A program made the translations under genes and the position numbers. A stretch of DNA of 64,000 bases from Thermoanaerobaculia bacterium (GTDB lineage: Bacteria > Acidobacteriota > Thermoanaerobaculia > Thermoanaerobaculales > Sulfomarinibacteraceae). The stretch spans positions 128,042 through 192,041 of the forward strand of contig JAMOWA010000018.1 of assembly GCA_027061805.1 (NCBI GenBank), read 5' to 3'. A model generated the notes under the pieces. It saw only the letters and a program-made list of their open reading frames with translations. It did not search any database and was not told where the DNA came from. Below are positions 6,199 through 62,426 of the stretch, piece after piece. Position 1 is the first letter of the stretch, and every line of letters starts with the position of its first letter.

Positions 6199-6288
<90 letters not shown>

Positions 6289-6303
6289 GGTCTTCAAGGA
6301 TCG

Positions 6304-19323: not shown

Positions 19324-19380
19324 GCACCTTCCGTCCCGATCCCGCCCCCCCCTCTGGCGGAGCACCCCGGGTGGTGCGCC

Positions 19381-26444: not shown

Positions 26445-26469
26445 GGGTGGGCCTTCCCGCCGGGAACCC

Positions 26470-28071: not shown

Positions 28072-28727
28072 GTCTCCTGGAGCTCGAGGCGGTCCGGGTG
28101 GTCCTCGGCGGCCGCCGAATCCTCGATGGCATCGACCTGGCCGTGGAGGAGGGCGAGCGGGTGGTGGTCCTGGGGCCCTCGGGCTCGGGCAAGACCACGG
28201 TGCTCCGGCTCCTGGCGGGCCTGGCCGTGCCCGCGGCGGGCCGGGTCCTGGTCGGTGGAAGGCCGGCCGCGGCCGACGGCCGGCTGCTGATCCCACCCGA
28301 GGAGCGGCAGGTGGGCATGGTGTTCCAGGACCTGGCCCTCTGGCCCCACCTCACCGTGGCCGGGAACCTGGAGCTGGGCCTGAGGGCGCGGGGTGTCCCC
28401 CGGACCGTGCGCCGGCAGCGCGTCGCGGAGATGCTCGAGCTCGTGGAGCTGGGCGACCGCGCCCGGGCACGGCCCGGCGAGCTCTCCGGCGGGGAGCAAC
28501 AGCGGGTGGCCCTGGCCAGGGCCCTGGTGCTCCGCCCCCGGGCGCTGCTCCTGGACGAGCCCCTGTCCAGCCTCGATCCTCCCCTGGCCCGGCGTCTGGT
28601 GGGGGTGATCCTCCGGCTCCAGGAGCGGCTCGGCCTCACCCTGGTCCACGTCACCCACGACCGCGAGGAGGCCCGTGCCCTGGCCACCCGAACCCTGTTC
28701 CTGGAGCGCGGCCGGCTCTCCGGCTAG
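28068..28727 (+). CDS. ABC transporter ATP-binding protein
   Basis: GTG 28068 (GTGA overlap). Walker A GPSGSGKT, signature LSGGEQQR, Walker B LLLDEP. Confidence 0.9.
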   Translation: MSLLELEAVRVVLGGRRILDGIDLAVEEGERVVVLGPSGSGKTTVLRLLAGLAVPAAGRVLVGGRPAAADGRLLIPPEERQVGMVFQDLALWPHLTVAGNLELGLRARGVPRTVRRQRVAEMLELVELGDRARARPGELSGGEQQRVALARALVLRPRALLLDEPLSSLDPPLARRLVGVILRLQERLGLTLVHVTHDREEARALATRTLFLERGRLSG

Positions 28728-29808: not shown

Positions 29809-30807
29809 TCAGGGTGTCCATGGCGGGGTGTCTCCCTTCCGGAAGCGTGACAGGCCGCTGTCGGTCCCGAACCAGTAGCCCGTGTCGTCCTCGAGCATGA
29901 CCTTGACCTCCCTGCCGGCCAGGCCCCGGCCCGGCGGGATGCGGTGCCAGCTCCCGTCGGGCTCCAGGATGGCCATGCCGTGGTACTCGGACCCGAACCA
30001 CAGGCGCCCCCCGCGGTCGGGGAAGATGGAGCGGACCTTGGGCCCCGCAAGGCCGTCAGTTTCCCCGAGGAAGGACCAGTGTCCCCCGGAGAACCTGGCC
30101 GCTCCCCCGCGGCTGGCGAAGCCGGTTCCCACCCACAGGTCGCCGCGACCGTCGCGGACCACGGCATTCACCGAGGGGTGGGGGAGCTCCGCCCCCACGC
30201 TGCACCGGGTCCACGTGGTGCCGTCGAAGGCGACCAGGCCGCCCCGGGTGGGGTGGGAGCTGCCCAGCCAGAGGGTCCCGTCCCGGTCCACGAAGACCAG
30301 GTCGAAGGCCGGCAGGGTGGCTTCGGGCGGGATGGCGAGGCGCTGCCAGCCGGGCTCCGGTCCCACGGCCACACCGGCCTCGCCTCCCGCCAGGATCCGG
30401 CCCTCCGGGTCCTCCGCCAGTGCCAGCACCCGGCGCAGGCCGGGGAGTTCCCGGTGGCTCCAGAGCCCCTCCTCCCAGAGCTCGAGTCCCCCGTCGTGCC
30501 CCACCCACACGCGCCCCCTGCGGTCCGCGAGGATGGCCCAGACCCTGGGGAACTCCGGGGCGCCCTCCGGCACGGGTGCGGGATGGAGGGTGTGGCGGTC
30601 CACGAGCACCAGCCCGTCCCGTCCCCCGGTCCACAGGACCCCGTCCACCAGTGCGAGGGTGCACACCTCGGATGGGGGGCGGACGATGGTCCATCCGGGG
30701 TCCAGCCTGTGCCGCTCCACACCACGGGTGAGCATGGCGGTGAGCTGCCACAGCCCGGCGACCACGCCCAGTGCCGCGAGGAGCTGGAGAAGGGGTCGGA
30801 CCTTCAT
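29809..30807 (-). CDS. membrane-anchored beta-propeller protein (two-component-regulator propeller-like repeats)
   Basis: N-terminal TM helix, then repeated D..G.LW.G...GL units (VDGVLWTGGRDGL, RGRVWVGHDGGL, DGTLWLGSS, RGDLWVGTG, GGRLWFGSE, TGYWFGTDSGL). An ATGA overlap with the upstream ATPase gene. Confidence 0.55.
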   Translation of the reverse strand: MKVRPLLQLLAALGVVAGLWQLTAMLTRGVERHRLDPGWTIVRPPSEVCTLALVDGVLWTGGRDGLVLVDRHTLHPAPVPEGAPEFPRVWAILADRRGRVWVGHDGGLELWEEGLWSHRELPGLRRVLALAEDPEGRILAGGEAGVAVGPEPGWQRLAIPPEATLPAFDLVFVDRDGTLWLGSSHPTRGGLVAFDGTTWTRCSVGAELPHPSVNAVVRDGRGDLWVGTGFASRGGAARFSGGHWSFLGETDGLAGPKVRSIFPDRGGRLWFGSEYHGMAILEPDGSWHRIPPGRGLAGREVKVMLEDDTGYWFGTDSGLSRFRKGDTPPWTP

Positions 30808-31466
30808 GGTGCCTCCGCGGGAGCGGGCGGGAGCCGCCCCGCCTCGATCCGGACGACCCTGTGGGAAATCTCCCGGAGGTCCTCCGGCCGGTGGCTCACC
30901 AGCAGCACGGTCATGCCCTCCTCGCGGGCCGTGGTGACCACGTGGCCGAGGACCACGTCCCGGAGAGTGGGGTCCAGGTGGGCCAGCGGTTCGTCCAGCA
31001 GGAGGATCCTCGGCCCGGCCACGAGCGCCCGGGCAAGGGAGAGCCTGCGGGCCTCGCCTCCCGAGAGCTCGGCACCCCGCCGGTCCGCGAGGCCTGCGAG
31101 ACCCAGAGCGGCCAGGTGGATCTCCATCCGCTTCCGGGCCCCGGCTCCGGCCCGCGGCCCGGCCACGAACTCGAGGTGCTCCATGACGGTCATGTGGGGC
31201 CAGAGCGCGGGGTGCTGCATGGAGAGGCCCACGTCCCGACGGTGGGGCGGTACGAGCCGTCGCGGCGAGCTCACCAGCCGGCCGTCCAGCAGGATCTCCC
31301 CCGCATCGGGCCGCTCCAGGCCCGCCACCAGACGCAGGAGCGTGGTCTTGCCGGCCCCCGAGGGTCCGGTGACGGCCACGATCTCCCCTCGCGCCACCTC
31401 CAGCCGGACCTCCTCCAGCGCCGTGATCCGGCCGTGGAGTCTGTGAACGCCGCGGAGCACGATCAT
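30804..31466 (-). CDS. ABC transporter ATP-binding protein
   Basis: ATG 31466 (ATGA overlap with the permease stop). GPSGAGKT, LSGGEARR and LLLDEP motifs. Confidence 0.9.
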   Translation of the reverse strand: MIVLRGVHRLHGRITALEEVRLEVARGEIVAVTGPSGAGKTTLLRLVAGLERPDAGEILLDGRLVSSPRRLVPPHRRDVGLSMQHPALWPHMTVMEHLEFVAGPRAGAGARKRMEIHLAALGLAGLADRRGAELSGGEARRLSLARALVAGPRILLLDEPLAHLDPTLRDVVLGHVVTTAREEGMTVLLVSHRPEDLREISHRVVRIEAGRLPPAPAEAP

Positions 31467-33001
31467 GCCGCTGGCCTCCCGGCCGCCCCCCTGGAGACGA
31501 GCGCGGCCACCCCCAGCCCCGTCACGGTGGTGACCACCAGGAGGACGAGGCACAGGCCCCGCACGTCCTGGGCGGCCCCGTAGTGCAGGTAGTTGGAGAT
31601 CCGGATGGCCAGCGTCGAGCGCCCCGGCGGCAGCACCAGGAGGGTGGCGCCGAGCTCGCCCAGGCTCAGGGCGAAGACGAAGCCCGAGGCCGCCAGCACC
31701 GTGGGCGCCTCCAGATGGAGACGCACCCCCACCCATCCCGCCAGGGGGCCGGGCTGGAAGACCCGGACGGCGTCGATCCGGTCCCTCTGCCTCCGCCTCA
31801 GACCGGCCAGCAGCACGAAGGTGGCGAAGGGGGTGAACCGCAGCAGCGCGGCCAGCACCGGCAGGAGCGGGCTGTCCAGCAGCACCATGGGCAACACGGG
31901 GTTGAACACCGCAAGGAGGGCGATTCCCACCAGGGGTGCGGGAACGGCCAGGGGCACGAAGGCCAGGACCCACCACAAGGGGGAGCGGAGGCCCCGGGCG
32001 AGAGCAGAGGCGAGGGGGATCGCCAGGACCGCCGCGCTGGCCGCCACGATCAGGCTGAAGCCCAGCTCGGGGCCCGCCAGGGTCAGGCCGGAGACCACTC
32101 CCTTCCAGGAACCCGGCCGCGCAGCCAGGGAGACCACGGGAACGAGGAACTGGGCGGCGAGCACGGCCGCCACCACACCCTGGAGCCCCCGGAACCACGC
32201 GGGCCAGCGCCAGGCGATCCCCGCGAGACCGCCCGTCGTCCCGACCCTGGCCCGCCGGAGCGCCGGGATCACCAGGGCCAGCACCAGCACGGAGACCACG
32301 AGCGCGGGCAGGGCCAGGATCGTGGCCCGGGCCGCATCATGGCCCGCCGAGAACTCCGCGAAGATCTCCAGTGGGAAGGTGGTCACGGCATGGAGGGAGG
32401 GGACGTCGTGGGCAGTGGCCACCAGGAGGAAGGCGAGACCTGCGGAGGCGGCGAGGAAGGGGGCCGCCAGCGGAAGGACCACCCGGCCCAGTACCACCGG
32501 GTCGGCGCGGTGGAGGCGGGCCGCCTCCACGGAGGGCCGGGGGAGGTTCAGGATCCCCACGAGCCCCAGGGCCGTGGTGATGGGCAGTACCGCCATGGTC
32601 TCCACCCAGAGCACCATCCCCGGGCCGGAGGCGGGCGGGGGCGCACCACCCCCCGTGATCACCCCGGCCAGCCACCCCAGGGCGTCGTTCCAGGCCAGGG
32701 CATGAACGTAGGGCGGGAGGGGCGCCAGCAGCACGGGCAGCCAGCGGAGCAGCCGGTGGCGGCCGGCCCTTCCCGTGGCGAGCGTCAGGGCGCCCAGGAA
32801 GCCCAGGGCGGTGGCCACGACCGCGACACCACCCGCCAGGACCACGGTCGTGACGAGGAGAGTCCATCGCCGGCCGGTGGGCAGGGCCAGCGCCATGACC
32901 TCCGGCCGGGGCACTGCGAGGCGCAGTGCGGCGAGGACCAACGCACCCAGGGGAACCGTCACCAGCAGGAACCAGACGAGGCGGCCCGCGCGACCCGTCA
33001 T
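31463..33001 (-). CDS. ABC transporter permease, duplicated two-domain type
   Basis: 12 predicted TM helices. Paralogous to 26470..28071 in architecture. Confidence 0.8.
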   Translation of the reverse strand: MTGRAGRLVWFLLVTVPLGALVLAALRLAVPRPEVMALALPTGRRWTLLVTTVVLAGGVAVVATALGFLGALTLATGRAGRHRLLRWLPVLLAPLPPYVHALAWNDALGWLAGVITGGGAPPPASGPGMVLWVETMAVLPITTALGLVGILNLPRPSVEAARLHRADPVVLGRVVLPLAAPFLAASAGLAFLLVATAHDVPSLHAVTTFPLEIFAEFSAGHDAARATILALPALVVSVLVLALVIPALRRARVGTTGGLAGIAWRWPAWFRGLQGVVAAVLAAQFLVPVVSLAARPGSWKGVVSGLTLAGPELGFSLIVAASAAVLAIPLASALARGLRSPLWWVLAFVPLAVPAPLVGIALLAVFNPVLPMVLLDSPLLPVLAALLRFTPFATFVLLAGLRRRQRDRIDAVRVFQPGPLAGWVGVRLHLEAPTVLAASGFVFALSLGELGATLLVLPPGRSTLAIRISNYLHYGAAQDVRGLCLVLLVVTTVTGLGVAALVSRGAAGRPAA

Positions 33002-34062
33002 CGGGAGAAGATCTCGACCAGAGCCCGGCGGCTGTCCCCGATCCGGTCATGGATGGCGTCGAGCCCCAGCTCCATGACACGGATCGGCGCCGTTCCCAGG
33101 CAGGGAGCCCTGGGGCCACCGGGCCGGACCGAGAGCTGGACGCAGCCACTCTCGATCAGCCGCTGCTCCGTCCCGGCGTCCACCAGGTACTCCACGAGCT
33201 TCCTGGCCTCGCGGGGATGCGGCGCACCGGCGACCACCGCCACGGTTCCCGGGATGAGAAGCGTCCCCGCCCCCCCCTGGTCGGGAAGGACGATCCGCAC
33301 GGGCGCACCGGCCTCCACGGCCCGGCAGGCGTCGTCGGAGTCCGTGAGGCCCCAGTCCAGCCGGCCCGCCACCACCAGGTCCCGGACGCCGGCGTTCCCG
33401 TCGGCCACGTGGACCCCGCGGTCCGCGAGCGCCCGGAAGAAGCGCTCCGCCTCCGGAGGCCCCCACAGGGCGAAGAGGGCGGCCGCATGGGTCGCCGTGG
33501 TCCCGAAGAGCGGGTTGGCGAGGCCCACCCTCGAGGGCTCCGCGGTGAGGAGGTCCTCCACGGAGCGCGGCATGGCCTCCTCCGGCACCCTCCGGGTGTT
33601 CACCAGGAGGACACGGACCCTGCACCCCACCCCCGTCCAGAGATCCCGGGACGACCGCATGGTCCCGGGGACGTCTCCGGCCGTTGCCGGGCGGCAGGCC
33701 TCCAGGAGACCCCGGGCCGCGAGCAGGAGCGTCTGGGAGAACTCCGAGTTCCAGAAGACGTCGGCCCGGGGACGTCTTCTCTCGGCGATGATCCGCTGCA
33801 CCAGTCCCACGGTCTTGGCGGCCTCCACGTCGAAGACCGGACGCACGCGGATCCCCGTCCGCTCGGCGAACTCGCGCAGGATGGGCTCCGAGTAGACCTG
33901 GTCCACGGAGGTGTAGACCACCACGGTCCTGGAGGCCTCCCGGGAGCAGGCCAGAGTCACCAGTACCAGGCCGCACAGGAGGGTGGAGAGTGCGGGGGCT
34001 CCGCGCCCCCGGTGGTGCCCGGGCTCCGGTCGTCGTCGATGGGGATGCAACGGTGCTGACAT
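32998..34062 (-). CDS. ABC transporter substrate-binding lipoprotein (paralogue of 25413..26444)
   Basis: ATG 34062 inside track ORF 32998..35844. Lipobox LVTLAC. VVVYTSVDQVYSEPILREFAERTGIRVR...DVFWNSE parallels the other binding protein. Confidence 0.8.
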   Translation of the reverse strand: MSAPLHPHRRRPEPGHHRGRGAPALSTLLCGLVLVTLACSREASRTVVVYTSVDQVYSEPILREFAERTGIRVRPVFDVEAAKTVGLVQRIIAERRRPRADVFWNSEFSQTLLLAARGLLEACRPATAGDVPGTMRSSRDLWTGVGCRVRVLLVNTRRVPEEAMPRSVEDLLTAEPSRVGLANPLFGTTATHAAALFALWGPPEAERFFRALADRGVHVADGNAGVRDLVVAGRLDWGLTDSDDACRAVEAGAPVRIVLPDQGGAGTLLIPGTVAVVAGAPHPREARKLVEYLVDAGTEQRLIESGCVQLSVRPGGPRAPCLGTAPIRVMELGLDAIHDRIGDSRRALVEIFSR

Positions 34063-34194
34063 GGTGGCTGGCACGGATTGTTCCTCCCGCCATGGTACCA
34101 GCGTGCGGTGACCCTCGTCCCCACCGGCTGCGGGAAGCCCCGGGGCGTGCTCCGGAACCGTGGAGGGAGCACCGTGTTCTGGTAGCATCATGGG

Positions 34195-36000
34195 GTGGAT
34201 TTCCAGGAAGGATCCCGCCACTACACCACCCTCTGTGAGAAACGGGCCCGGGGGGAGCTCGACGATGCCGCCTTTGCCGCGGCGGTGGCCGCGATCCGGG
34301 TGACCGACGCCTCCGGCTACACCTGGACCCTCGACACGGGTGGCCGCTGGCTCTACTGGAACGGCTCCGCATGGGTGGCCCCTCCGGGTGGCCCTCCCGC
34401 CGCGGGAGCCGGTGCACCCCGGCCGGAGGCGGCGCCGGCGAAGGCCGCCGGGACCGCTGGGGGTACCGTGCCCGCCTCCGGTGCCGGCCAGGAGCTCGAG
34501 GCGTGGCTGCGCCGCGTCCTGCGGTGGTTCCCCATGATCCTCGGGACCCTGAGGGGACGCCTTCCCCCCACGTCGGTCTTTCTCCAGCAGATGCGGCACG
34601 TGCCGCTCCGGAAGCGGCCCCAGCCCTGGTGGGACATGCTGGCGATCCTGGGGGGAGCCGCCGCGGGCACGCTGTGGTTCCTGTACTCCTCCGTCCGGGG
34701 CCTGCCGCACTTCATCCCGCTCCAGCGGGAGTTCGAGAGCTCCGCGGATTTCATCCCGCCCCTGCTGCTCGGCGTCGGTGCGTTCCTCCTGTGGACCTTC
34801 CGGAGGCGGGTGGCCGGGGCCCTCCAGCCGCTCCTGGCCCCCCTGCGGAAGGTTCCCCTGCTGGGCCGCTTCGCCATGGGCGGCGGAGTGCTGTTGATCG
34901 GCTGGCTGATCCGCACCAGGAGCGGGCTCTTCCAGGACCGGGAGGGTATGGATCTCATCACGCCGCTCCTGATGGTGGCTCTCCCCGTGCTCATCGTGGT
35001 GTTCCGGGAGCCCCTGGATGCCATCCTTCGCCCCCTGGACCCCTGTCGCCGGAGGATCCCGAGAATCGTCCTGGTGATCCTGGGCCTCGCGGCACCCTAC
35101 TTCGTGGCCCACATCCTCTACCGGTGGTTCGGTCTCATCCAGTACCCCTTCCTCCGGGCCTCGGTGGTCTTCGGCACCATGATCTCCTACGCCATACTCA
35201 GGACGCCTGCGGGTGTCCCTCCGCGGGGCAGGGGCAGGGACCCTGCAGGGCGGGGCCGGGCGGCGCCGACCGGTGGGGCCACCCCACCCCCCCTCCCCGG
35301 CAACGCCGGTTCCGCCCTGAGCCGGCGGACGGCCTGGGTGGGGCTGGCGTGGATGATCGGCATCCACCTCCTCATGGTCACCCCGGCCCTGGCCGACGAC
35401 TTCCTCCGGGACCCCTTCAACGCCAACGACGGCCTCCGGACCCCCGGCGTGGCCGAGGCCATCGCGGGCACGGTCACGGTGATCGTGTCGGGCCTGGTCA
35501 ACGGGGCCGAGGTGGTCCGCACGGTCATCGAGGTCCGGGAGGAGTCCGGCGCGGCCGGTGGGGAGGGTGCGGGTGGGGCGGTGGGAACGCCGGCGGGTGC
35601 GGGTGGGGATGGGGGTGAGGAACAGGAGCCGCGACAGGTCCAGATCGTGGTCAACACCACGGATGCCAGCGGGTCCCCCGGAACCCGCCTGGAAACCGGG
35701 GTCAACGACGCCGTCTTCATCTATGCCTACGCCGTGGAGGTGGGGAAGGGAGGCCTCGACGGGGTCACCGGGAGCCTGGGCTTCCACCTGGAGTCGGGTC
35801 CTCCCTTCGTGTTCCTCACGGACCATGGCATGACCGGGGGACAACGCTGCGCCGGGGTGCAGTTCGAGTCGCCCCTTCCGGACGGGCCGCCACCGTCCTC
35901 CGTGGTGGCGAGGGTCTCCGCCGTGGTGGAGGGGAAGACCATCTCGGTCCCGGTGACCCTGGAGCTCGTGGTGGCACCGTATGTCGTTCGGTTCCGGTAG
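34195..36000 (+). CDS. polytopic membrane protein of unknown function
   Basis: Only start is GTG 34195, with no clear SD. N-terminal W-rich module (GYTWTLDTGGRWLYWNGSAWV), at least 7 hydrophobic helices, and a C-terminal beta-rich soluble domain. Confidence 0.6.
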   Translation: MDFQEGSRHYTTLCEKRARGELDDAAFAAAVAAIRVTDASGYTWTLDTGGRWLYWNGSAWVAPPGGPPAAGAGAPRPEAAPAKAAGTAGGTVPASGAGQELEAWLRRVLRWFPMILGTLRGRLPPTSVFLQQMRHVPLRKRPQPWWDMLAILGGAAAGTLWFLYSSVRGLPHFIPLQREFESSADFIPPLLLGVGAFLLWTFRRRVAGALQPLLAPLRKVPLLGRFAMGGGVLLIGWLIRTRSGLFQDREGMDLITPLLMVALPVLIVVFREPLDAILRPLDPCRRRIPRIVLVILGLAAPYFVAHILYRWFGLIQYPFLRASVVFGTMISYAILRTPAGVPPRGRGRDPAGRGRAAPTGGATPPPLPGNAGSALSRRTAWVGLAWMIGIHLLMVTPALADDFLRDPFNANDGLRTPGVAEAIAGTVTVIVSGLVNGAEVVRTVIEVREESGAAGGEGAGGAVGTPAGAGGDGGEEQEPRQVQIVVNTTDASGSPGTRLETGVNDAVFIYAYAVEVGKGGLDGVTGSLGFHLESGPPFVFLTDHGMTGGQRCAGVQFESPLPDGPPPSSVVARVSAVVEGKTISVPVTLELVVAPYVVRFR

Positions 36001-36035
36001 GGGGTGCGCGGACCTCGCAGGAGGGGAGCAGGAGG

Positions 36036-38504
36036 ATGGCTGAAAAGACGTACCGGCTTCCTTTCGACGCCGAGAGCGGACGCTACGAGAAGGAGACCAT
36101 CGTGGCCGACGTGGTCCGGAGGGGGCAGGAGGCGCCCTGTCCCCTGGAGCGGGCCGAGTTCCAGTTCCCGGAGGAGCTCTTCGAGCTCACGGTGGAGTTC
36201 GAGCCGGGCGCCGAGGAGGTCCGGGCGGAGGTGGCGCTCCGGGAGGAGGTCTACGAGGCCAGCGACTTCACCACCCTCGCCGAGAAGGATCACGAGCTCC
36301 TCCTGGAGGTGGTGCCCCGGGAGGGGACCGCGGATGGGGGCTTCAAGCCGGGGCCCGTCCTCAGGAAGTCCTGCCTGGTGCAGTGCGAGCCGGTGCGCCC
36401 CGCCATGGTCCTGAAGGAGCCGAGCGAGGAGGAGCTGCCGCTGCCCGCCGTGGGGGACGAGCAGACCACCTTGGTGCTCCAGGTGACCATGGGTGCCGGA
36501 GGGAGGCCCTGGAAGGGGCTGGAGCTCCGGTGGGAGCGGCTGGAGGGGGGCTGCTCCGTCCACGGCACCCTCGAGGGCGGTTCTGCCGTCACGGACGAGG
36601 CCGGGGAGATCCAGCTGAGCTACACCGCCCCCAGGCTCTGCTACAGGCCGGGGGAGAAGTACTTCGAGGAGTATCGCTTCCTCGGGACCGGTCCCCAGGA
36701 GCAGGAGCTCTTCCGGCTGAAGATCCCCCTGGCACCGCTGATCGTGTACCGGATGAAGGCGGAGAAGGTCCAGGAGCTGAATGACGGGGAATACGGCATC
36801 GAGGGGCCCCCGACCGAGGTGGTGGAGATCGATCCCCGCGACCGGGTGAAGGCCCTCGAGGGCACCTTGCTCCTCACGACCACGATCCGCGGCAGGGAGC
36901 AGCAGGACCCGGTGGCCGACATGGAGTGCTCCATCCTGCTGGGGGACGAGAACGGCGTTCCGGAGGATCAGGAGGGGATCAAGCTCACCACCGATGCCCA
37001 GGGCACGATCCGCTGGGAGGTCCCGGAGCTCGCCGCGGCCTTCGGGAACCGGGGGACCACCCGCCAGCTCTCCACGGAGCGGGGGGAGCTCCCCCGCCTG
37101 GAGCTCACCGAGGCCACACGGAAGGTGCTGGAGTTCTACGAATCGCGGTTCGACCACCAGAGCTTCCCCAGGGGTGTCTTCCAGGGCGGCCTGGAGGAGG
37201 AGCTCCGGTCGTACCGTCTCGTCCACAGCCGGCAGCTGGCCTCACGGGAGACCGCCGCCTACCAGAAGATCCGGGACACCCTGGAGATCCTCTCGATCGG
37301 GACGCGCTACGCGGGGTCCTTCCGCCGGTGCTTCACGGAGCAGTTCTCGCCGCTGCTGGGCGTCCTCGGCGACACCTTCTGGGAATACTTCAACTACATC
37401 TGGAACCTCAAGGACATGGCGGGGAAGATCATCGCCGGGCTGACCGGCGGCGCCTCGGCCATCGCCCGGGCCATCGCCAGCCGCTGCGAGGGCTCCGTCT
37501 CGTTCCTCCGGACCCTCCTGGCGCGGATCCGGCCTCTGCAGTGGGCCATCGACAGGGCCATGGGTTTCTTCGAGTGGCTGGTGACGAAGGTGGAGGGGCT
37601 CGCCGCCTTTGCCGGGAAGCTTGTGGGGAAGCTCCGCCAGACCGCCCTCGACCTGGCGAGGGAGGCCACGGAGCTCGTCGGCCTGATGGACCAGGTGGAA
37701 TCCAGGGGACTGAAGATCCTGGCGGTCCTCGCCGCCGGGATCAAGGGGCTCGTGGCCACCGTGGCACGGGGCATCGGTCACCTGCTCCAGGGGGCGGTGG
37801 GGGTGCTCGAGAGGTTCGCCTTCTGGCTCATGACCAACGCGGTGGTGGGCCTGCGCGTCTTCGAGCGGAGCTTCTTCGAGCACATGGAGGACCACACCGG
37901 CATGGAGGCCATCCACCGGGGGATCCAGTACTTCATGGAGGCCCTGGGGGCGCGCTGGCACGGGAAGCTCGCCGGGGAGGGGATCACGGTCCAGGTCGAG
38001 AACTACCTCCAGAGCCTCCTGGAGACCTTCTTCGGGAAGGGGGGGTGGGTCACCGGAGGGGCCTCCCGGGCGGTGTCGAACTTCGCCTCACTGAACCTCT
38101 TCGATCCGTCGGCCACGGTGGCCGTCCGGAGCCTCCACCGGGCGTGTTCGGACCTCAGGGCGGCCGATGATCCGGAGGAGAAGGTCGCAACCACCAGGGA
38201 GATGGCCTCCAGCGTGGCCCAGACCCAGCTCACCTACGAGAAGTCGTTCATCATGGGCGAGGCCATCAAGATGTTCGTGGACAGCATGAAGATCCCCGTC
38301 CAGGTGGCCCTGGCGGCGGTGGTGACACTGACCACCCTGGGAGGCGGGGCCGTGGCCGTGGGCAGCATCTGCACCAAGATGGAGGTCATCATCTCCACCC
38401 TCGCCATCTGCCTGCTCGACGTGCCCCACGCCGTCACCATCTTCCTGGGGGCCTACCTCATCCAGCAGGCCTACCTGACGGCCGTGGCCAACCTGGAGGC
38501 CTGA
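36036..38504 (+). CDS. 822-aa protein of unknown function: beta-rich N-terminal half, long amphipathic-helical half, C-terminal hydrophobic hairpin
   Basis: AGGAGGATGG context. Codon bias matches neighbouring genes. No signal peptide. I recognise no family motif. Confidence 0.7.
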   Translation: MAEKTYRLPFDAESGRYEKETIVADVVRRGQEAPCPLERAEFQFPEELFELTVEFEPGAEEVRAEVALREEVYEASDFTTLAEKDHELLLEVVPREGTADGGFKPGPVLRKSCLVQCEPVRPAMVLKEPSEEELPLPAVGDEQTTLVLQVTMGAGGRPWKGLELRWERLEGGCSVHGTLEGGSAVTDEAGEIQLSYTAPRLCYRPGEKYFEEYRFLGTGPQEQELFRLKIPLAPLIVYRMKAEKVQELNDGEYGIEGPPTEVVEIDPRDRVKALEGTLLLTTTIRGREQQDPVADMECSILLGDENGVPEDQEGIKLTTDAQGTIRWEVPELAAAFGNRGTTRQLSTERGELPRLELTEATRKVLEFYESRFDHQSFPRGVFQGGLEEELRSYRLVHSRQLASRETAAYQKIRDTLEILSIGTRYAGSFRRCFTEQFSPLLGVLGDTFWEYFNYIWNLKDMAGKIIAGLTGGASAIARAIASRCEGSVSFLRTLLARIRPLQWAIDRAMGFFEWLVTKVEGLAAFAGKLVGKLRQTALDLAREATELVGLMDQVESRGLKILAVLAAGIKGLVATVARGIGHLLQGAVGVLERFAFWLMTNAVVGLRVFERSFFEHMEDHTGMEAIHRGIQYFMEALGARWHGKLAGEGITVQVENYLQSLLETFFGKGGWVTGGASRAVSNFASLNLFDPSATVAVRSLHRACSDLRAADDPEEKVATTREMASSVAQTQLTYEKSFIMGEAIKMFVDSMKIPVQVALAAVVTLTTLGGGAVAVGSICTKMEVIISTLAICLLDVPHAVTIFLGAYLIQQAYLTAVANLEA

Positions 38505-39658
38505 TGTCCGGTGAACCGGTATTCGTGGATCCCGGCCCGCTGACGGTCCAGCTGGAGGCGGTGGCCGGCCTGCTCGCCGCCCCACCACCCGCCGCCGCGC
38601 TCCAGAGGAGCGTGGCCGAGCAGGCTCGGACCCTGTTGCAGAGCCTTGCCGCCCTGCCACGTACCGCCACGGAACCGGACTGGACCGGATGGACGGCGTA
38701 CTGCGAGGAGCGGAGCGTGGAGGTCTTCCGGGAGGGAGTGAGCATCTCGGGCATGCTGGGACCCTCGGGGGATCTCCTCTGGCTGGATGCCCACGTGGAG
38801 CCCGGGATCCACTGGCACGTGGTCTTCGAGGGGACCTTCTCCGGGACGGGCGCCCTGGAGGCCATGCTGGGGTCCGGCGGTGGGAGTGCGGCGCAGAACA
38901 CGCAGATGACCGTGGACGTCACCACGGAGCAGGGCCTGACCTCCTCGACGCAGTTCACCCTGGAGGGCCGGGAGGTGGACTGCCTGGACGTGGAGACCGG
39001 CATCGAGGAGGCCCTGGGACACCTCCGGGCCTCCCTGGGACACCTGAGCGGGGGTGGGGACGGGGACCTTCCGGTGGAGGGGGGCAGCGGTACCGTTCCC
39101 GATGCCGCGGCCGGACAGGTGCCGGGCGCGGACTCCGGACTGCCCGGCGGCGCCATGGCCGGGGCCGCCCTGGGGGCCGCCGCCGCGGGGATCGCCGGCA
39201 TGGCCGCCGCCGCCCTCCGCAGGCGGGGGCAGGGGGCCCCGCCGCCACCGGCCGCGGGCCCGGCGCCATCCCCCGCTCCGGTGGCGGAGTGGTACTACTC
39301 CACCGACGGCCGGTCCGTGGGCCCCTGCACCCTGGAGGACCTGAAGCGGCTCCTCGCGGCCGGGACCGTCACCGCGGAGACTCCCGTGTGGAGCCCGGAG
39401 CTCGGGGACTGGCGGCCGGCCTCCACGGTGCCCGCACTCCAGGCCGCCCCGCCGGCAGCGGGGAGGTCGGTGCCTCCCCCCCTGCCACAGCAGGCCGAAT
39501 GGTTCTTCGCCCTGGGGAACGAGCAGCGGGGCCCGGTGACCCTGATGGAGCTCAGGGCGCACCTGGCCGGGGGTGCCGTGTCCCCGCAGACCCTGGTCTG
39601 GAAGGCCGGCATGGACGGCTGGGTCCCGGCGTCCTCCATCCCCGAGCTCTGGGGCTGA
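38504..39658 (+). CDS. single-pass membrane protein with two C-terminal GYF_2 domains
   Basis: ATG overlaps the upstream stop by 1 nt (TGATG). Gly/Ala-rich TM helix GGAMAGAALGAAAAGIAGMAAAAL. Two repeats: EWYYSTDGRSVGPCTLEDL...WSPELGDWRPAS and EWFFALGNEQRGPVTLMEL...VWKAGMDGWVPAS. Confidence 0.7.
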   Translation: MSGEPVFVDPGPLTVQLEAVAGLLAAPPPAAALQRSVAEQARTLLQSLAALPRTATEPDWTGWTAYCEERSVEVFREGVSISGMLGPSGDLLWLDAHVEPGIHWHVVFEGTFSGTGALEAMLGSGGGSAAQNTQMTVDVTTEQGLTSSTQFTLEGREVDCLDVETGIEEALGHLRASLGHLSGGGDGDLPVEGGSGTVPDAAAGQVPGADSGLPGGAMAGAALGAAAAGIAGMAAAALRRRGQGAPPPPAAGPAPSPAPVAEWYYSTDGRSVGPCTLEDLKRLLAAGTVTAETPVWSPELGDWRPASTVPALQAAPPAAGRSVPPPLPQQAEWFFALGNEQRGPVTLMELRAHLAGGAVSPQTLVWKAGMDGWVPASSIPELWG

Positions 39659-39684: not shown

Positions 39685-40089
39685 TCAGGACTTCCGGATG
39701 CTGTGGATCAGTGCTCGCAGGCCTCCGAACTCCTGGATCAGCGTCAGGAAGCGGTTGGGCACCGGCGCCAGGAGGACCGTCCCGGTCCCCCGGAAGGTGC
39801 TCACCAGGCCCTCGCCGGAGATCCAGCTGGAGAAGAGGCCCCTGGTGGCACGCTCCACGGCATACTCGAGGCCCGGCGTCCGGGCCACGGGGGACGCCGC
39901 GGGAGGGAGTGGCGCCGGGGCTTCCGCAGCCGGAACCACCTGCTCCACGGGCGTCCACTGGGCCAGCCCCTCGTACCGGCACAGGCTGCCGGGCGGCAGG
40001 CTTCCCCGGGCGAGCATCCGCGCCACCTGCTCCAGGGTGCAGGATCCCTGCTGGCTCCCGTTGACGGCAACGGAGAACTCCAGCCCCAT
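39685..40089 (-). CDS. small GYF_2-domain protein
   Basis: Preferred start is ATG 40089 after GGAGGAGGGAAG (the track ORF extends to 40161). VAVNGSQQGSCTLEQVARML...YEGLAQWTPVEQV. The tail GEGLVSTFRGTGTVLLAP resembles an AIM24-family C-terminus, weakly. Confidence 0.55.
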   Translation of the reverse strand: MGLEFSVAVNGSQQGSCTLEQVARMLARGSLPPGSLCRYEGLAQWTPVEQVVPAAEAPAPLPPAASPVARTPGLEYAVERATRGLFSSWISGEGLVSTFRGTGTVLLAPVPNRFLTLIQEFGGLRALIHSIRKS

Positions 40090-40205
40090 GGCTTCCCTCC
40101 TCCAGGCCATACCGGGCGGATCGTAGTACGATGCTCCTCCCCATCGGGCCGCGGGCTTCACAGCACCCCTGCCCCTGGGGTAGAGTTCGGGCGCCGGAGG
40201 TGGGC

Positions 40206-41414
40206 ATGACCACGACGATCACCAGGGCCACAGCGGGACCCTCGGGGGAGAAGATCAGGTCGGACCTGGTGGTGCGCTACGAGCCGGGGACGGAGCCCCT
40301 GGCCGTGACGGTTTCGAGCAAGGTGGACTACCTCTACGGTGAGGCCATCGAGGCCGCGGTGCGGCGGGTGGCCGCGGCCCTCGGCGTGGCCACCGGGACC
40401 CTCTCCGTGGAGGACTTCGGCGCCCTGGAGTGGGTGATCCTGGCGCGGGTGGAGGCCTGCCTGCGGCGGGCCGGCTTCGCGGGGGAGCCGGTGCTCCCGG
40501 AGCCCTCGCCGGGCCGGGTCCCGCCCCGGGAGCGCCACCGCCTCCGCCGGAGCCGGCTCTACGTGCCGGGGAGCCAGCCCAAGCTCATGCTCTCGGCGGG
40601 GCTCTACGGCGCCGACGGCATCATCCTGGACCTGGAGGACTCGGTGGCCCCCGCGGAGAAGGACGCGGCCCGGCTCCTCGTCCGGAACGCCCTGGTGGCC
40701 ATGGACTTCGGCGACTCCGAACGTATGGTTCGCGTCAACCAGGGAGAGGCCGGCCTGGCCGATCTGGAGGTGGTGGCCCCCCACGAGGTCCACACGGTGC
40801 TGCTGCCCAAGGTGGAGCGCCCGGAGGAGGTGGCGGAGGTGGCGGCCAGACTCCGCGAGCTCTGCGGGGAGGAGGCGCCCTTCCTGATGCCCATCCTGGA
40901 GTCGCCGCTCGGGATCCGGAACGCCTACGAGATCGCCGCCGCCGACCCCCTGGTGGTGGCACTGACCCTGGGGCTCGAGGACCTCTCGGCCGAGCTGGGC
41001 GCGCCCCGGACCCCCGAGGCCTGGGAGAGCTTCCTGGCCCGGCAGACCACCGTCTACGCCGCGCGGGCCGCGGGCGTGGCCCCCATCGCCTCGGTGTTTT
41101 CCGACGTGCGCGACGAGGCGGGCCTGGAGTCCTACGTGCGGCGGGAGCGGGCCCTGGGCTTCGACGGCATCGGCTGCATCCACCCCCGCCAGATCCCCGT
41201 GGTGCACCGGGCCATGGCCCCCACCGAGGCCGAGCTCGAGAAGGCGCTCAGGATCGTGGCCGCGGCCGAGGAGGCCGAGGCCCGGGGACTGGGGGTGGTG
41301 GCCCTGGGCTCCAAGATGGTGGACCCCCCCGTGGTCCACCAGGCCCGACGCACCGTGGAGCTCGCGCGGGCCGCCGGGATGCTCCCGGCGGAGGGGGGGA
41401 CGGAGGAGGACTGA
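40206..41414 (+). CDS. citrate lyase acyl carrier (CitD)-beta subunit (CitE) fusion protein
   Basis: ATG 40206 after GGAGGTGGG. The N-terminal ~95 aa are CitD-like (AGPSGE..., SVEDFGALEWVILARVEACLRRAG). The rest is CitE/HpcH-like (RRSRLYVPGSQPK, ILDLEDSVAPAEKDAAR). Confidence 0.8.
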   Translation: MTTTITRATAGPSGEKIRSDLVVRYEPGTEPLAVTVSSKVDYLYGEAIEAAVRRVAAALGVATGTLSVEDFGALEWVILARVEACLRRAGFAGEPVLPEPSPGRVPPRERHRLRRSRLYVPGSQPKLMLSAGLYGADGIILDLEDSVAPAEKDAARLLVRNALVAMDFGDSERMVRVNQGEAGLADLEVVAPHEVHTVLLPKVERPEEVAEVAARLRELCGEEAPFLMPILESPLGIRNAYEIAAADPLVVALTLGLEDLSAELGAPRTPEAWESFLARQTTVYAARAAGVAPIASVFSDVRDEAGLESYVRRERALGFDGIGCIHPRQIPVVHRAMAPTEAELEKALRIVAAAEEAEARGLGVVALGSKMVDPPVVHQARRTVELARAAGMLPAEGGTEED

Positions 41415-41447: not shown

Positions 41448-42617
41448 TCACACCCCCGCGGCCTCGTCCCCCTCGTCCAGGCGGAAGCGGACACCCACCA
41501 CCTGCGTGATGCCCACCGGCCTGCCCTTCGCGTCCAGGGCCGGCTCGAAGGTCCAGTGGCGCACGGCCTCCACGGCCGCGTCGGTCAGACCGGCCGGCAG
41601 GCCCTCGAGGACGGTGACCTCCTTCACGCTCCCGTCGGCACCGATGGCCAGCTCCAGGCGGACGGTGCCCTGGAGGTGCCGGCGGCGAGCCTCCTCCGGG
41701 TAGGCCGGCGGCTGCGCATCCTTCACCCTCGGAGGTGTCCACCCCTCCGGGAGCCCGGCCCGCGAGGCAGACGAGGACGACGCCGGGTCGCCATCCAGGG
41801 CGAAGCGCACGGCCACCTTGAAGAGCACGGGAACGGCGTGGCCGTCGGCGTCCCGGGCCGGCTCGAAGGTCCACCGGCGCACGGCCTCCGCTGCAGCGTC
41901 GGCGAGCCCCTCCGGCAGGGGACGGAGCACCTGGACGAGGTTCTCCAGGCGCAGCCAGAGGACGTCGAGCCGTGCCACGTGGGCCAGCTCGTGGGCGAGG
42001 ATCGCCTCCATGCGTTCCCGCGGCCAGCCCGCGGCCTCCTCGGGCAGCGCGATGACCGGCCGGAGGAGCCCCATGGTGAAGGGGCCGGGAAGCCCCCGTG
42101 CCAGGAGCACCCGGACCCGCCGGCGGATGTGGAGGCGGCGGCGCCAGAGGCCCAGGAGCTCGTCCATCATGGGGTCGTCAGCGGGATATCCTCCATGGAG
42201 GAGTGCCCTGGTCCTCCACCACTGGGTCCCCAGGAGCCCAGCGACCAGGAGGGCCCCGGAAAGCCAGAGGCCGAGGAGGCCGGCCTGCATCCATGGGATC
42301 GCGGTGGGAACCCCGGACGCGGCGGAGCTCACCAGGTCCCCCGCGGGAAGCACGGTGGTGGAGGCCGTGGTCCCGCCCGGGAGCCAGTCCTGGAGGAGCG
42401 CCGCCAGGCTGAAGCGGAAGGCCGCGCCCGGTGGCAGGAGGAAGCGGAGGACCACCAGGGTCCAGAGGACGTGGTGCAGGGTGGTGGCCCGCCGCGGCCA
42501 GAGGTGCTGCACGGCGAGGGCCAGGACGAGGAGGATCCCCCCGTAGAGGCTCAGCCGCCCCAGGAGGCCGAGCCATGCCTGGAGAAGGGCCGGTGCGCTG
42601 GCGAGGACCTCAGGCAT
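41448..42617 (-). CDS. BlaR1-type M56 peptidase domain fused to TonB C-terminal domain(s)
   Basis: N-terminal TM helices, an HELAH zinc motif, and a C-terminal TonB_C domain (PPAYPEEARRRHLQGTVRLELAIGADGSV...). A partial TonB_C copy lies upstream of it. Overlaps blaI by 8 nt. Confidence 0.8.
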   Translation of the reverse strand: MPEVLASAPALLQAWLGLLGRLSLYGGILLVLALAVQHLWPRRATTLHHVLWTLVVLRFLLPPGAAFRFSLAALLQDWLPGGTTASTTVLPAGDLVSSAASGVPTAIPWMQAGLLGLWLSGALLVAGLLGTQWWRTRALLHGGYPADDPMMDELLGLWRRRLHIRRRVRVLLARGLPGPFTMGLLRPVIALPEEAAGWPRERMEAILAHELAHVARLDVLWLRLENLVQVLRPLPEGLADAAAEAVRRWTFEPARDADGHAVPVLFKVAVRFALDGDPASSSSASRAGLPEGWTPPRVKDAQPPAYPEEARRRHLQGTVRLELAIGADGSVKEVTVLEGLPAGLTDAAVEAVRHWTFEPALDAKGRPVGITQVVGVRFRLDEGDEAAGV

Positions 42618-43002
42618 CGTCGGAGCCCCCCCCGTCCCGGGCCAGGAGCCGCTCCACCTCCCGGATCTCCTCCTCGCTCAGCTCGGCGCCCCGGGTCAGC
42701 AGGGGTACCACGGCGGCGGCGTCGATCTCGAGCACCCGCTCGGCGAAGTCCCGGACCAGGGCCGCCAGGCCCGCCGCCCGCGGGATGGCCGGGATGTAGA
42801 GGTTCACGCCGTGGAAGCGCTCCCGGAGCACCGCGCCCTTCTGGACCATGCGTTCCAGGACCGTCCGCGTGGTGGAGAGGGCCCAGTTCCGCCGCGGGCC
42901 CACCCTTTCGTGGACCTCCCGGGCGCTCAGGCGCCCGTGGCGCCAGAGCACCTTCATGATCTCCATCTCCGATCTCGAGAGCTCGCGGATGTCGGTGGTC
43001 AT
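42610..43002 (-). CDS. blaI: BlaI/MecI/CopY-family transcriptional repressor
   Basis: LSRSEMEIMKVLWRHGRLSAREVHERV...STTRTVLERMVQKGAV, a winged helix of the penicillinase-repressor family. Confidence 0.9.
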   Translation of the reverse strand: MTTDIRELSRSEMEIMKVLWRHGRLSAREVHERVGPRRNWALSTTRTVLERMVQKGAVLRERFHGVNLYIPAIPRAAGLAALVRDFAERVLEIDAAAVVPLLTRGAELSEEEIREVERLLARDGGGSDDA

Positions 43003-43139: not shown

Positions 43140-44696
43140 ATGGCACGGCCGGAGCTCGTCGAAAACGCCGCGGGACGCCTGGTGCCCGCCGAGGTCAACG
43201 GCGCCGAACAGGTGCCCTTCCGTGGGGTCGGGGGCCACCGGCCCTCGGGCCGGAAGGCGGCCCCGCTGATCCGCACCTGCCTGGACTACCCCGAGGACGG
43301 GGACAAGCGGGTGGGCTCGCTCCGGGAGGCCCTGGAGCAGGTGGGGCTGGCCGACGGCATGGTGGTCTCCACGCACCACCACCTGCGCAACGGCGACGCT
43401 GTGGCCAACATGGTCTTCGAGGCGGCCGCCGAGATGGGCCGGAGGGACCTCATGTGGTTCCCCTCGGCCTCCTTCCCGGTGCACGAGCCGCAGATCGCCC
43501 ACATGGAGTCCGGGGTGATCCACCACATCGAGGGCTCCATGAACGGGCCCCTGGGGGACTACTGCACCGCCGGGAGGATGCGTGGCCTGGGCGTGCTGCG
43601 CTCCCACGGGGGCCGCTGGCAGGCCATCCAGGACGGGGAGGTCCACATCGACGTGGCGGTGATCGCCGCCCCCACGGCGGACCCCTTCGGCAACGCCAAC
43701 GCCCTCGACGGCCCCGCGGCCTGCGGGCTCCTGGGCTTCGCCCTGGCGGATTCCATCTACGCGGAGCGGGTCGTCGTGGTCACCGACAACCTGGTGCCCT
43801 TCCCCTGCCTTCCCTGGCAGATCCAGGGCAACAACGTGGACGTGGTGGTGGAGGTGCCCTCCATCGGGGACCCCGCGAAGATCGTGTCCGGGACAACCCG
43901 CATCACCCAGAGTCCGGACCGCCTCCGCATCGCCGAGCTGGCCGCCCGCTTCTGCGACGCGGCCGGCATCGTCCGGGACGGCTTCTCCTTCCAGGCGGGC
44001 GCCGGGGGCACCACCCTGGCCTTCGCCATCTTCCTGCGCGACATCATGCGCGAGCGCGGGGTGGCGGCCGCCTTCGCCCGGGGAGGGTCCACGAAGTACA
44101 TGGTGGAGATGCTCCGGGAGGGGCTCATCGGCTACATCCTGGACGGCCAGACCTTCGACCTGGACGGGGTGGCCTCCATGCGGGAGGACCCCCGCCACGT
44201 GGACACCTCTCCCTTCACCTCCTACAACTTCCACGGCAAGGGGAACTTCGCCTCCATGGTGGACGTGGCGGTGCTGGGCGCCACCGAAGTGGACGTGGAC
44301 TTCAACGCCAACGTGGTGACCCACTCGGACGGCCGGCTGCTCCACGGCATCGGCGGCTGGCAGAACTGCCTGGCCGCCCGGACCACCATGCTCCTGGTGC
44401 CCTCCTTCCGGGACCGGATCCCGGTGATCGTGGACGAGGTCACCACCCTCTGCGGTCCCGGCGAGCTCATCGACGTGGTGGTCACCGAGCGGGGGATCGC
44501 GGTGAACCCGCGCCGGCAGGACCTCCTGGACGCGGTGGCGGGCTCGGGGCTGCCCATCCGGGACATCCACGACCTCAAGGCGGAGCTGGACCGTCTCTGC
44601 GGGGCGCCACAGCGCATCCAGCGCAGCCGCGACCCGGTGGCCGTGGTGAAGTGGGTTGACGGCACGGTGCTGGACACCGTCTGGCGGATCGGGTAG
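43140..44696 (+). CDS. citF: citrate lyase alpha subunit (citrate CoA-transferase)
   Basis: STHHHLRNGD, SHGGR, DPFGNAN, FSFQAGAGGTTLA, DVAVLGATEVDVDFNANV and VTERGIAVNP follow the CitF pattern along the full length. Confidence 0.9.
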   Translation: MARPELVENAAGRLVPAEVNGAEQVPFRGVGGHRPSGRKAAPLIRTCLDYPEDGDKRVGSLREALEQVGLADGMVVSTHHHLRNGDAVANMVFEAAAEMGRRDLMWFPSASFPVHEPQIAHMESGVIHHIEGSMNGPLGDYCTAGRMRGLGVLRSHGGRWQAIQDGEVHIDVAVIAAPTADPFGNANALDGPAACGLLGFALADSIYAERVVVVTDNLVPFPCLPWQIQGNNVDVVVEVPSIGDPAKIVSGTTRITQSPDRLRIAELAARFCDAAGIVRDGFSFQAGAGGTTLAFAIFLRDIMRERGVAAAFARGGSTKYMVEMLREGLIGYILDGQTFDLDGVASMREDPRHVDTSPFTSYNFHGKGNFASMVDVAVLGATEVDVDFNANVVTHSDGRLLHGIGGWQNCLAARTTMLLVPSFRDRIPVIVDEVTTLCGPGELIDVVVTERGIAVNPRRQDLLDAVAGSGLPIRDIHDLKAELDRLCGAPQRIQRSRDPVAVVKWVDGTVLDTVWRIG

Positions 44697-54058: not shown

Positions 54059-54220
54059 ATGGCACGAGATCTTGCCGAGGAGCTCGAGAGGAACATTCCC
54101 CTGTCCGAAATGATCCAGACCCTGCGCCGCGAGTTGCAGGTGTCCATGGCTGTCGCGAAAGATGAGGATCCACGCTTCAATGTTCCCGAGGTGGAGCTCG
54201 GGCCGAGGCGCGTGGCATGA
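54059..54220 (+). pseudogene. truncated trypco2-like (trypsin-co-occurring domain 2) fragment, 53 aa
   Basis: GGGAGGGGG SD. LSEMIQTLRRELQVSMAVAKDEDPRFNVPEVEL matches the N-terminal half of the trypco2 pattern as I recall it, then ends. The stop overlaps the next ATG (ATGA). Not in the ORF track (under 60 aa). Confidence 0.4.
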
Positions 54221-62200: not shown

Positions 62201-62426
62201 CCAGGGCCCGGTGGGTCTGGACCACCACGCCGGCCAGGGCCCCGAGCTCCCGGGCCAGCACCGCGGTGAGGTGCCGCGCGAGGCTCCGCGACGGCACCAC
62301 GATCCGCACCGGCGGCCAGAGCGCCCCGGCATCCCGCGCCCGGCGCTCCAGGATCCAGTCCAGCACCCGCCGCTCGGCCTCGCGCGGCCCCGCGGCAGCG
62401 AGGATCGGTGAGAGGCTGTCGCTCAT
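59289..62426 (-). CDS. AddB-like helicase-nuclease subunit (no Walker A; C-terminal PD-(D/E)XK with Cys cluster)
   Basis: An ATGA overlap with the DUF5131 stop. Nuclease motif [11 protein letters not shown]. Terminal cysteines ILACLD...[13 protein letters not shown] are typical of the AddB-type Fe-S nuclease domain. Confidence 0.8.

Follow-up and report, generated by a model that had tools for sequence, protein, structure and literature searches.

The window analysed here is a 64,000-nucleotide stretch of the genome of a Thermoanaerobaculia bacterium (GenBank assembly GCA_027061805.1, contig JAMOWA010000018.1, positions 128,042 to 192,041), and its subject is a trio of consecutive plus-strand genes, here called g1, g2 and g3. 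g1 (34195..36000, +) encodes a 601-residue polytopic inner-membrane protein from a GTG start codon, g2 (36036..38504, +) encodes an 822-residue protein from an ATG start codon, and g3 (38504..39658, +) encodes a protein of 384 residues. The trio genes are real and behave as one operon. Each is an open reading frame (ORF) whose in-frame G+C content at third codon positions (GC3) of 0.84-0.98 is the coding signature of the genome, in a window where GC content is 70-76% nearly everywhere; the initial annotation had likewise listed three plus-strand genes with these boundaries and normal codon bias. The GTG start of g1 is supported because its orthologues begin with MDF or MSF at the same position. 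The g1 stop codon (TAG, 35998-36000) is separated by 35 nt from the g2 ATG at 36036, which is preceded by GGAGGGGAGCAGGAGG, and the g2 stop and g3 start have one base in common in cTGATGt (38502-38506), a 1-nt overlap; both junctions had been read in this way before. The upstream neighbour of g1 is an opposite-strand gene for a lipoprotein substrate-binding protein (SBP) that starts at 34062, and the downstream neighbour of g3 is a convergent gene with its stop codon at 39685-39687. Since the first neighbour is divergent and the second convergent, the trio is a self-contained transcription unit on its strand. The 132-bp region between the SBP and g1 start codons (34063..34194) presumably holds the promoters of both the SBP operon and the trio. 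A scan of this region returned no sigma-70-like consensus, promoter and terminator scans being uninformative in DNA of 72% GC, and a Rfam scan near the trio returned no riboswitch or other RNA. The window belongs to the core chromosome and is not an island, as it encodes FtsZ, methylmalonyl-CoA mutase, isocitrate dehydrogenase, citrate lyase and an AddA-like helicase.

Searches of Pfam, NCBIfam, PADLOC and PHROGs with the three proteins recognised only GYF_2 (PF14237) in g3, at 134.4 bits against a cut-off of 25.8 (E 1.1e-39, in two stretches, the better at residues 333-382). PADLOC-DB 2.0 contained no family at E≤1 for any of the three, PHROGs gave no match to g1, g2 or g3, and PDB sequence searches with a single sequence and with a family profile gave nothing for g1. 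When 19 members of the g1 family and 35 of the g2 family were scanned individually, only sub-threshold matches appeared, to SHOCT and DUF2510 in the N-terminal module of g1 and to Big_1 and apolipoprotein in g2. Searches of the literature on GYF, FHA and zinc-ribbon domains and on GYF_2/DUF4339 turned up no description of the gene cluster. The earlier statement that no family apart from GYF_2 can be recognised therefore stands, and profile searching places the trio in no well-characterised family. Uncharacterised operons are common, and no known family or system accommodates this one.

The g1 protein begins with an N-terminal module (N-module; residues 1-61, 34195..34377, +) of two helices and a W-rich three-stranded β unit, modelled by AlphaFold2 (AF2) with a predicted local distance difference test score (pLDDT) of 81-91. 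The module is SHOCT-like or DUF2510-like: two of the 19 family members match SHOCT (PF09851, E 0.17) and one matches DUF2510 (PF10708, E 0.31), all below threshold, and the window g1 itself matches neither, which makes the likeness a resemblance only. A Pro-rich linker (residues 62-100), disordered in the AF2 model, follows the module. Among the related loci described below, the N-module is absent in L007 and L013, and in L011 it is encoded as a small protein of its own, joined to a Pro-rich segment and zinc ribbons. The membrane domain (residues 143-444, 34621..35526, +) consists of eight transmembrane (TM) helices, delimited by AF2, by Lys/Arg (K/R) counts and by invariant columns. Its short periplasmic loops carry the invariant motifs LFQxREGxDxITP and ADDFxRDPFNxNDGLRT, and its cytoplasmic loop 336-372 is Arg/Pro-rich (PPPLP). 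The protein ends in an immunoglobulin (Ig)-like β-sandwich (residues 480-595, 35632..35979, +; pLDDT 82-89) whose location is predicted to be cytoplasmic. The topology of g1 is N-in/C-in because 23 K/R residues in the loops of the eight AF2 helices are assigned inside and 5 outside. Distant bitopic relatives of g1 keep the C-terminal domain and are ordered as signal peptide, exported domain, TM helix, K/R cluster and Ig-like domain. Since they carry true signal peptides, they provide independent evidence that the Ig-like domain follows an out-to-in TM helix. An earlier description of g1 as having at least seven TM helices, a W-rich N-terminal module and a beta-rich C-terminal domain agrees with this model, which was built from 19 sequences and has a mean pLDDT of 68. 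A Foldseek search of the PDB with the TM domain (pLDDT 60-87) gave no match at E≤1e-3, the matches listed aligning only the C-terminal β-sandwich. That sandwich has weak Ig-like matches (e.g., SbsC and the GAE/adaptin ear), and hhalign of g1 against g2 found no relationship between it and the Ig domains of g2.

The N-terminal part of g2 (residues 1-375, 36036..37160, +; pLDDT ~87) is a tandem array of Ig-like β-sandwiches. Foldseek matches this region in the PDB to intimin D00-D0, the filamin rod, FdeC and NUP210 at E 1e-6 to 1e-7 with probability 1.0. Big_1 matches are sub-threshold and occur in three members of the g2 family, the best scoring 17.6 bits against a cut-off of 34.9 in a relative. 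The known Big arrays of bacteria are adhesins that are exported and have signal peptides or autotransporter anchors. The g2 array shares the fold of the intimin-invasin and filamin-rod arrays but has no signal peptide, is probably cytoplasmic, is joined to a helical membrane domain and falls below the Pfam threshold for Big_1. None of the three trio proteins has an N-terminal signal peptide, as had been noted.

The array is followed by a helical domain of about 370 residues (376-745, 37161..38270, +) with very long amphipathic helices and the conserved motif QFSPLLGVLGDTFWDFFNYIWN, and by a hydrophobic C-terminus (residues 746-822, 38271..38504, +) in which hydropathy and invariant columns delimit two or three hydrophobic helices. 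The g2 helices are strongly amphipathic, with a hydrophobic moment of 1.2-1.7 over residues 412-590. The AF2 model of residues 416-822, from an 8-sequence alignment, contains helices of 55-76 residues at a pLDDT of only 30-45. Hydrophobic segments near 560-600 and at 750-820 are kept in all relatives, and the C-terminus carries invariant polar residues (K752, C779, E783, S787 and P797-H798). The β-sandwich segments, amphipathic helices and hydrophobic C-terminus that the initial annotation assigned to g2 are thus recovered by AF2 and hydropathy, but the enrichment in small-xxx-small motifs that it also proposed is not, since residues 416-822 contain 33 [GAS]xxx[GAS] motifs and shuffled sequences contain 31.6±4.1.

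Long amphipathic helices, an Ala/Leu/Gly-rich composition and terminal hydrophobic helices are features that g2 shares with phage tape-measure proteins, apolipoproteins and α-pore-forming toxins. The likeness lies in composition alone, with no specific family match and no phage or secretion context. PDB searches with g2 gave only compositional matches of similar E-values, to tape-measure proteins, chemoreceptors (methyl-accepting chemotaxis proteins, MCPs), designed helical bundles and apolipoproteins. It is highly improbable that the trio is a degenerate phage-tail or tape-measure remnant, or a set of unrelated neighbouring ORFs without joint function. The helical region of g2 does match PDB tape-measure proteins weakly (E ~1e-6), as well as proteins named 'phage-related protein' and proteins bearing PF20155, but the latter matches span just 4-9% of the query. 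MCPs, designed bundles and apolipoproteins match the g2 helices equally well, and the tape-measure signal is therefore compositional. No tail genes lie nearby, and g2 has neither a PHROG match nor a relative in IMG/VR that would assign it to a tape-measure or tail family.

The third protein begins with a family-specific domain (g3N; residues 1-200, 38504..39103, +) that has no Pfam match and is, by gene order, an obligate partner of g2. It continues with a Gly/Ala-rich helix (PGGAMAGAALGAAAAGIAGMAAAAL, 39140..39217, +) and two GYF_2 domains at about residues 263-312 and 333-382 (39290..39649, +), with Pro-rich linkers (PPPLP) before and between them. The Gly/Ala segment has a Kyte-Doolittle value of 1.69 and is a conserved small-residue helix whose membrane status is uncertain. 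Because its counterparts in L001 and L004 contain Arg, and because 5 of 9 aligned g3-like proteins do not reach the hydrophobicity threshold at this segment, the earlier description of g3 as TM-anchored is doubtful, while the Pro-rich linker and the two GYF_2 domains (134 bits) reported with it are present. GYF_2, FHA and zinc ribbon domains are cytoplasmic peptide-binding module types, and they vary among loci at the C-terminus of g3. There are two GYF_2 domains in the window, L002 and L003, and one in L009; GYF_2 with FHA and zinc ribbons in L001 and L004; GYF_2 with FHA in L014; FHA with a zinc ribbon in L007 and L013; a zinc ribbon alone in L011; and no module in L018. Pro-rich segments that include PPPLP occur after the g1 N-module, in the g1 loop 336-372 and in the g3 linker. 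In 9 of 11 loci, which are phylogenetically non-independent, the N-module of g1 with its linker and the GYF_2 domain of g3 are either both present or both absent, which is suggestive of a link between the two.

A related use of a GYF domain is known in GltJ of the Agl-Glt gliding machinery of Myxococcus xanthus (NF033761), where experiments have shown that the bacterial GYF domain binds a proline-rich sequence of AglZ (PMC11135422). GltJ and g3 are both membrane-associated proteins with a cytoplasmic GYF domain of the bacterial type, some g3 orthologues also carry zinc-ribbon modules as GltJ does, and the same binding logic may apply to g3. However, g3 scores 58.2 bits against the GltJ model, over the GYF region only, and the equivalog cut-off is 450. 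Assignment to GltJ takes a full-length score of at least 450 bits, a ZnR-GYF-TM-periplasmic TPR architecture and a glt/agl context; g3 has instead a family-specific N-domain and two GYF copies, and it lacks a TPR or periplasmic part and glt/agl neighbours.

Gene order was surveyed in 12 distinct loci whose sequence continues beyond the 3' end of g2. The gene directly 3' of g2 encodes g3N in every one of them, the two genes overlapping by up to 4 nt or lying up to 9 nt apart. Four loci (L012, L013, L014 and L018) were left out of the building of the g3N profile, and their g3N domains score against it at E 1e-17 to 1e-70. A g1-like gene lies upstream of g2 in 10 of the 12. Since order and spacing are kept across the 12 loci down to about 20% identity, chance adjacency is excluded. 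Together with the lack of a relative in IMG/VR and of a PHROG match, the shared gene order effectively refutes the phage-remnant and chance-adjacency explanations. The trio thus recurs outside this genome, as would be expected of the conserved unit first proposed.

The first gene is the variable one. In L014, g1 is split into a protein with the N-module and three TM helices and a protein with the last TM helix and the Ig-like domain. L009 has, in place of g1, a bitopic protein that starts with a genuine signal peptide and continues with an exported β-rich domain, a single TM helix and the conserved Ig-like domain at the C-terminus. A similar bitopic protein is present in L011 as read from its sequence, though the g1 profile missed it and matches only the separate N-module protein there. 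In L018 (6287-14920), a distant g2 of 822 residues is followed by a bare g3N of 210 residues and then by a 739-residue ankyrin-repeat protein with a central TM helix. The evolutionary core is the pair of g2 and g3N, which is smaller than a three-gene operon, because g3N follows g2 in every locus while g1 is reduced or replaced in distant members. The usual third member is a transmembrane partner with a cytoplasmic Ig-like domain at its end. Two loci show further features. A TPR-CHAT protein is encoded divergently upstream in L018, a context unlike that of the loci linked to an importer. L005 (8001-11096; also L006) lacks g2 and encodes a 1031-residue g1-like protein, followed by a GYF_2 protein without g3N. 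The 490-residue C-terminal extension of the g1-like protein is unrelated to g2 (hhalign probability 0.2%), so a g1-g2 fusion is ruled out.

The family is small and is spread over a few dozen lineages of uncultured bacteria. A set of 5.8 billion clustered proteins yielded seven g2 homologues, all of 822-823 residues and 44-94% identical to g2. When 1.84 billion representatives were searched exhaustively with a HMMER profile of g2, 57 clusters reached E≤1e-3 and 12 of these also E≤1e-30; most of the 57 represent a longer form of 930-1000 residues with an extra domain of about 120 residues inserted after the first β-domain. A third protein-database search with a diverse profile was swamped by low-complexity candidates. 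The g1 family has 18 homologues. Scans of genomes, metagenomes and viruses gave one new locus (L012, in a metagenome-assembled genome of Thermoanaerobaculales, Acidobacteriota, which carries a relative of the trio) and one already known, and the IMG/VR scan found no relatives of the trio in viruses. The contigs that carry family members have a GC content of 50-77%.

Such a rare and patchy distribution is one of several observations that bear on the possibility that the trio is a regulated membrane-permeabilising effector, serving in conflict, abortive infection or stress-induced suicide. The amphipathic helices and the hydrophobic C-terminal hairpin of g2 would insert into the membrane and form a pore or disrupt it; g3N would be a coupled inhibitor or chaperone resembling an immunity protein; the GYF, FHA or zinc-ribbon modules would act as sensors that release g2; and the g1-like proteins would be transmembrane receptors. 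The long-helix domain and terminal hydrophobic helices of g2 are family-wide, and its composition is like that of membrane-active helical proteins (tape-measure proteins and apolipoproteins). A small partner gene always follows the large g2 gene with overlapping or adjacent codons, and both the C-terminal modules of g3 and the extracytoplasmic part of the g1-like proteins shuffle among loci. Some distant members also have toxin-antitoxin genes (MazE/PIN, TumE and PIN) or the TPR-CHAT protein nearby. Conservation within the trio points the other way. The length of g2 orthologues is strictly kept (822-823 residues), and its Ig region, its helical region and g3N diverge together (46, 42 and 44% identity, respectively, to L002). 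g3N evolves no faster than g2 and shows no signature of accelerated evolution. Because g2 length is conserved and g3N does not outpace g2, a stable complex is favoured over an arms race. The most conserved part of the trio is the membrane domain of g1 (53-83% identity to five orthologues) and not the putative toxin. The trio lies in core chromosome, has no PADLOC or PHROG match and no IMG/VR relative, and in several lineages is tightly fused in operons with an ATP-binding cassette (ABC) importer and a propeller. PDB sequence searches and Foldseek gave g2 no sequence or fold link to α-pore-forming toxins, colicin or gasdermin, its helical part being modelled at a pLDDT of 30-45. An effector of this kind is unlikely.

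The importer and propeller are encoded by a minus-strand operon that diverges from g1 in the window. It comprises the lipoprotein SBP (32998-34062, -), a fused double permease of about 510 residues (31463-33001, -) and a short ATPase (30804-about 31466, -), all assigned with Pfam and NCBIfam, and a periplasmic β-propeller of 332 residues (29809..30807, -) that is signal-anchored by an N-terminal hydrophobic segment and has Reg_prop repeats (PF07494, E 3.5e-26). Of 8 close-family loci, 7 have the propeller, the importer or both beside the trio, in three arrangements, namely divergent and adjacent (the window and L003), downstream on the opposite strand (L002) and upstream on the same strand (L007 and L013). 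Importer orthologues flank the trio in L002, L003, L007 and L013. Propeller orthologues adjoin it in L001, L003, L005, L007 and L013 (E 1e-148 to 1e-172), without an importer in L001 and L005. In L013, seven genes stand in one contiguous, overlapping series on the same strand, with a 4-nt overlap between the propeller gene and g1. In relatives, the functional unit is larger than the trio, with up to seven genes that include the ABC importer and the periplasmic propeller. The three-gene operon of the initial annotation is conserved as a module but is not free-standing, as importer and propeller belong to its conserved neighbourhood.

The importer has the layout of FbpABC/HitABC, with an SBP, a fused double permease of about 510 residues and an ATPase. 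The nearest PDB matches of the SBP are the ferric-binding proteins HitA and FbpA (E 4e-16). However, the Tyr-Tyr pair that provides the iron ligand in HitA and TtFbpA aligns to Asp-Asp in the window SBP, so that this ligand pair of FbpA/HitA is absent, and canonically bound Fe3+ is probably not the substrate. The NCBIfam scores of the importer components are all far below their cut-offs. The importer also differs from FbpABC in the propeller and trio alongside it; canonical Fbp operons are not known to have an associated propeller or trio.

Alternatively, the trio may be a novel machine for transport or biogenesis, with the eight-TM domain of g1 as its catalytic or channel subunit and with g2 and g3 as structural or regulatory accessories. 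g1 would then be an exporter, a flippase or an enzyme that modifies lipids or glycans, acting on the substrate of the ABC system and propeller. The high conservation of its TM domain (53-83% identity), its place in an operon with importer and propeller, and invariant charged and polar residues in or near the membrane (R249, E250, D253, R271, D275, N436, E439 and the DDFxRDPFNxNDG loop) are consistent with such a role. Yet the polytopic domain is dispensable, since in distant members g1 is split or gives way to a bitopic protein that has just the last TM helix and the Ig-like domain. The g1 model, which is of medium confidence, matches no transporter or enzyme fold in the PDB, and the trio contains no energy-coupling domain. 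This alternative is distinctly unlikely.

Essentially all soluble domains of the trio are placed in the cytoplasm because g1 is N-in/C-in, g2 and g3 lack signal peptides, and the modules of g3 are of cytoplasmic types. The assembly was originally described as membrane-embedded, and its membrane association is retained; it faces the cytoplasm and does not span the envelope, the N-module and C-terminal domain of g1, the Ig-like array of g2 and the adaptors of g3 all being cytoplasmic by topology. We favour, tentatively and as something short of probable, the reading that the trio forms an inner-membrane scaffold or signalling complex that faces the cytoplasm and in this lineage works with the adjacent importer and propeller. 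g1 would be the transmembrane component, its eight helices exposing short invariant acidic loops to the periplasm and its N-module, Arg/Pro-rich loop and C-terminal Ig-like domain to the cytoplasm. g2 would be a large cytoplasmic scaffold or effector in which a rigid Ig-like array is joined to an amphipathic long-helix domain lying on or in the membrane, with the hydrophobic C-terminus and its conserved polar residues as a possible anchor. The N-domain of g3 would bind g2, and the interchangeable modules of g3 (GYF_2 here; FHA and zinc ribbons elsewhere) would recruit partners that are proline-rich or carry phospho-threonine. Among the candidate ligands of GYF_2 are the Pro-rich stretches in g1 and in g3 itself. 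The complex may sense the state or substrate of the FbpA-like importer and the β-propeller, or it may control both.

Several observations weigh against this cytoplasm-facing complex. Half of g2, its helical domain, is modelled at a pLDDT of 30-45, and its tertiary arrangement is unreliable. A family of 57 clusters among 1.84 billion representatives, patchily distributed over hosts of 50-77% GC, fits an accessory function better than a housekeeping one. The importer and propeller are absent around L004, L009, L011, L014 and L018, where the distant contigs are mostly short, so that transport coupling would be lineage-specific at best and not the core function. The FHA modules have no kinase, phosphatase or response regulator conserved nearby as a partner.

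If the favoured reading holds, the trio is a conserved multi-protein membrane module without a described relative in poorly studied and mostly uncultured bacteria. It would represent a new intracellular use of bacterial Ig-like arrays with a new obligate partner domain (g3N) and, after GltJ, a second independent case in which GYF/proline-rich recognition organises a bacterial membrane complex. A more far-reaching proposal, which must be called doubtful, is that g2-g3N and g1-type partners constitute a new class of machine on the cytoplasmic face of the membrane. In it, a rigid intracellular Ig array on amphipathic or membrane-inserting helices would be linked to the periplasm by g1, and eukaryote-like recognition of the proline-rich/GYF, WW-like and FHA kinds would connect it to partners in the cytoplasm, with functional fusion to an ABC importer in Thermoanaerobaculia-like lineages. 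Such a machine would couple solute uptake to protein-scaffold signalling or to membrane remodelling in a manner not recognised before. The fusion with importer and propeller gives a concrete experimental handle, and the present practical value of the analysis lies in the targets that it delimits for structural biology and genetics, namely domain boundaries, topology, invariant residues and rules of co-occurrence.

The surroundings of the trio contain further features. A second, paralogous FbpA-like ABC importer (25272-28724, +; SBP E 3e-63 to the first, with a fused permease and an ATPase) is convergent with the propeller/importer operon, which places two copies within 9 kb. The convergent gene downstream of g3 (39685-40089, -) encodes a GYF_2 domain and only the last ~67 residues of an AIM24 domain. 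Its orthologue in L003 has 304 residues, about 170 more between the GYF_2 and AIM24 parts; the retained C-terminus is 97% identical between the two and the GYF part 62%. The window gene is an in-frame internal deletion variant. Further downstream, a BlaR1-type M56 peptidase fused to two TonB_C domains and a BlaI-like repressor are encoded on the opposite strand between citrate-lyase genes (an acyl carrier protein and β-subunit fusion, and CitF), the genes occupying 41448-43002 (-), 40131-41414 (+) and 43140-44696 (+).

Two islets of low GC content lie toward the end of the window. The first (54217-55397, +; 63% against ~72%) contains two overlapping ORFs in different frames, one Schlafen AlbA_2 and the other HATPase_c_4/HTH, which look like one RecG-like transcriptional-regulator gene split by a frameshift. 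The second (62423-63963, -; 61%) encodes a DUF5131 protein (E 1e-106) and then a 264-residue partner without a Pfam match. These two resemble the DUF5131/TcmP pair, and the islet is likely to have been horizontally acquired. Elsewhere, ORFs of 709 residues (11529-13658, +) and 419 residues (19324-20583, +) have a good coding signature and no Pfam family, and a small signal recognition particle RNA (6049-6393, -) adjoins two tRNA-Ser genes (GGA and CGA anticodons) near ftsZ (3860-5290).

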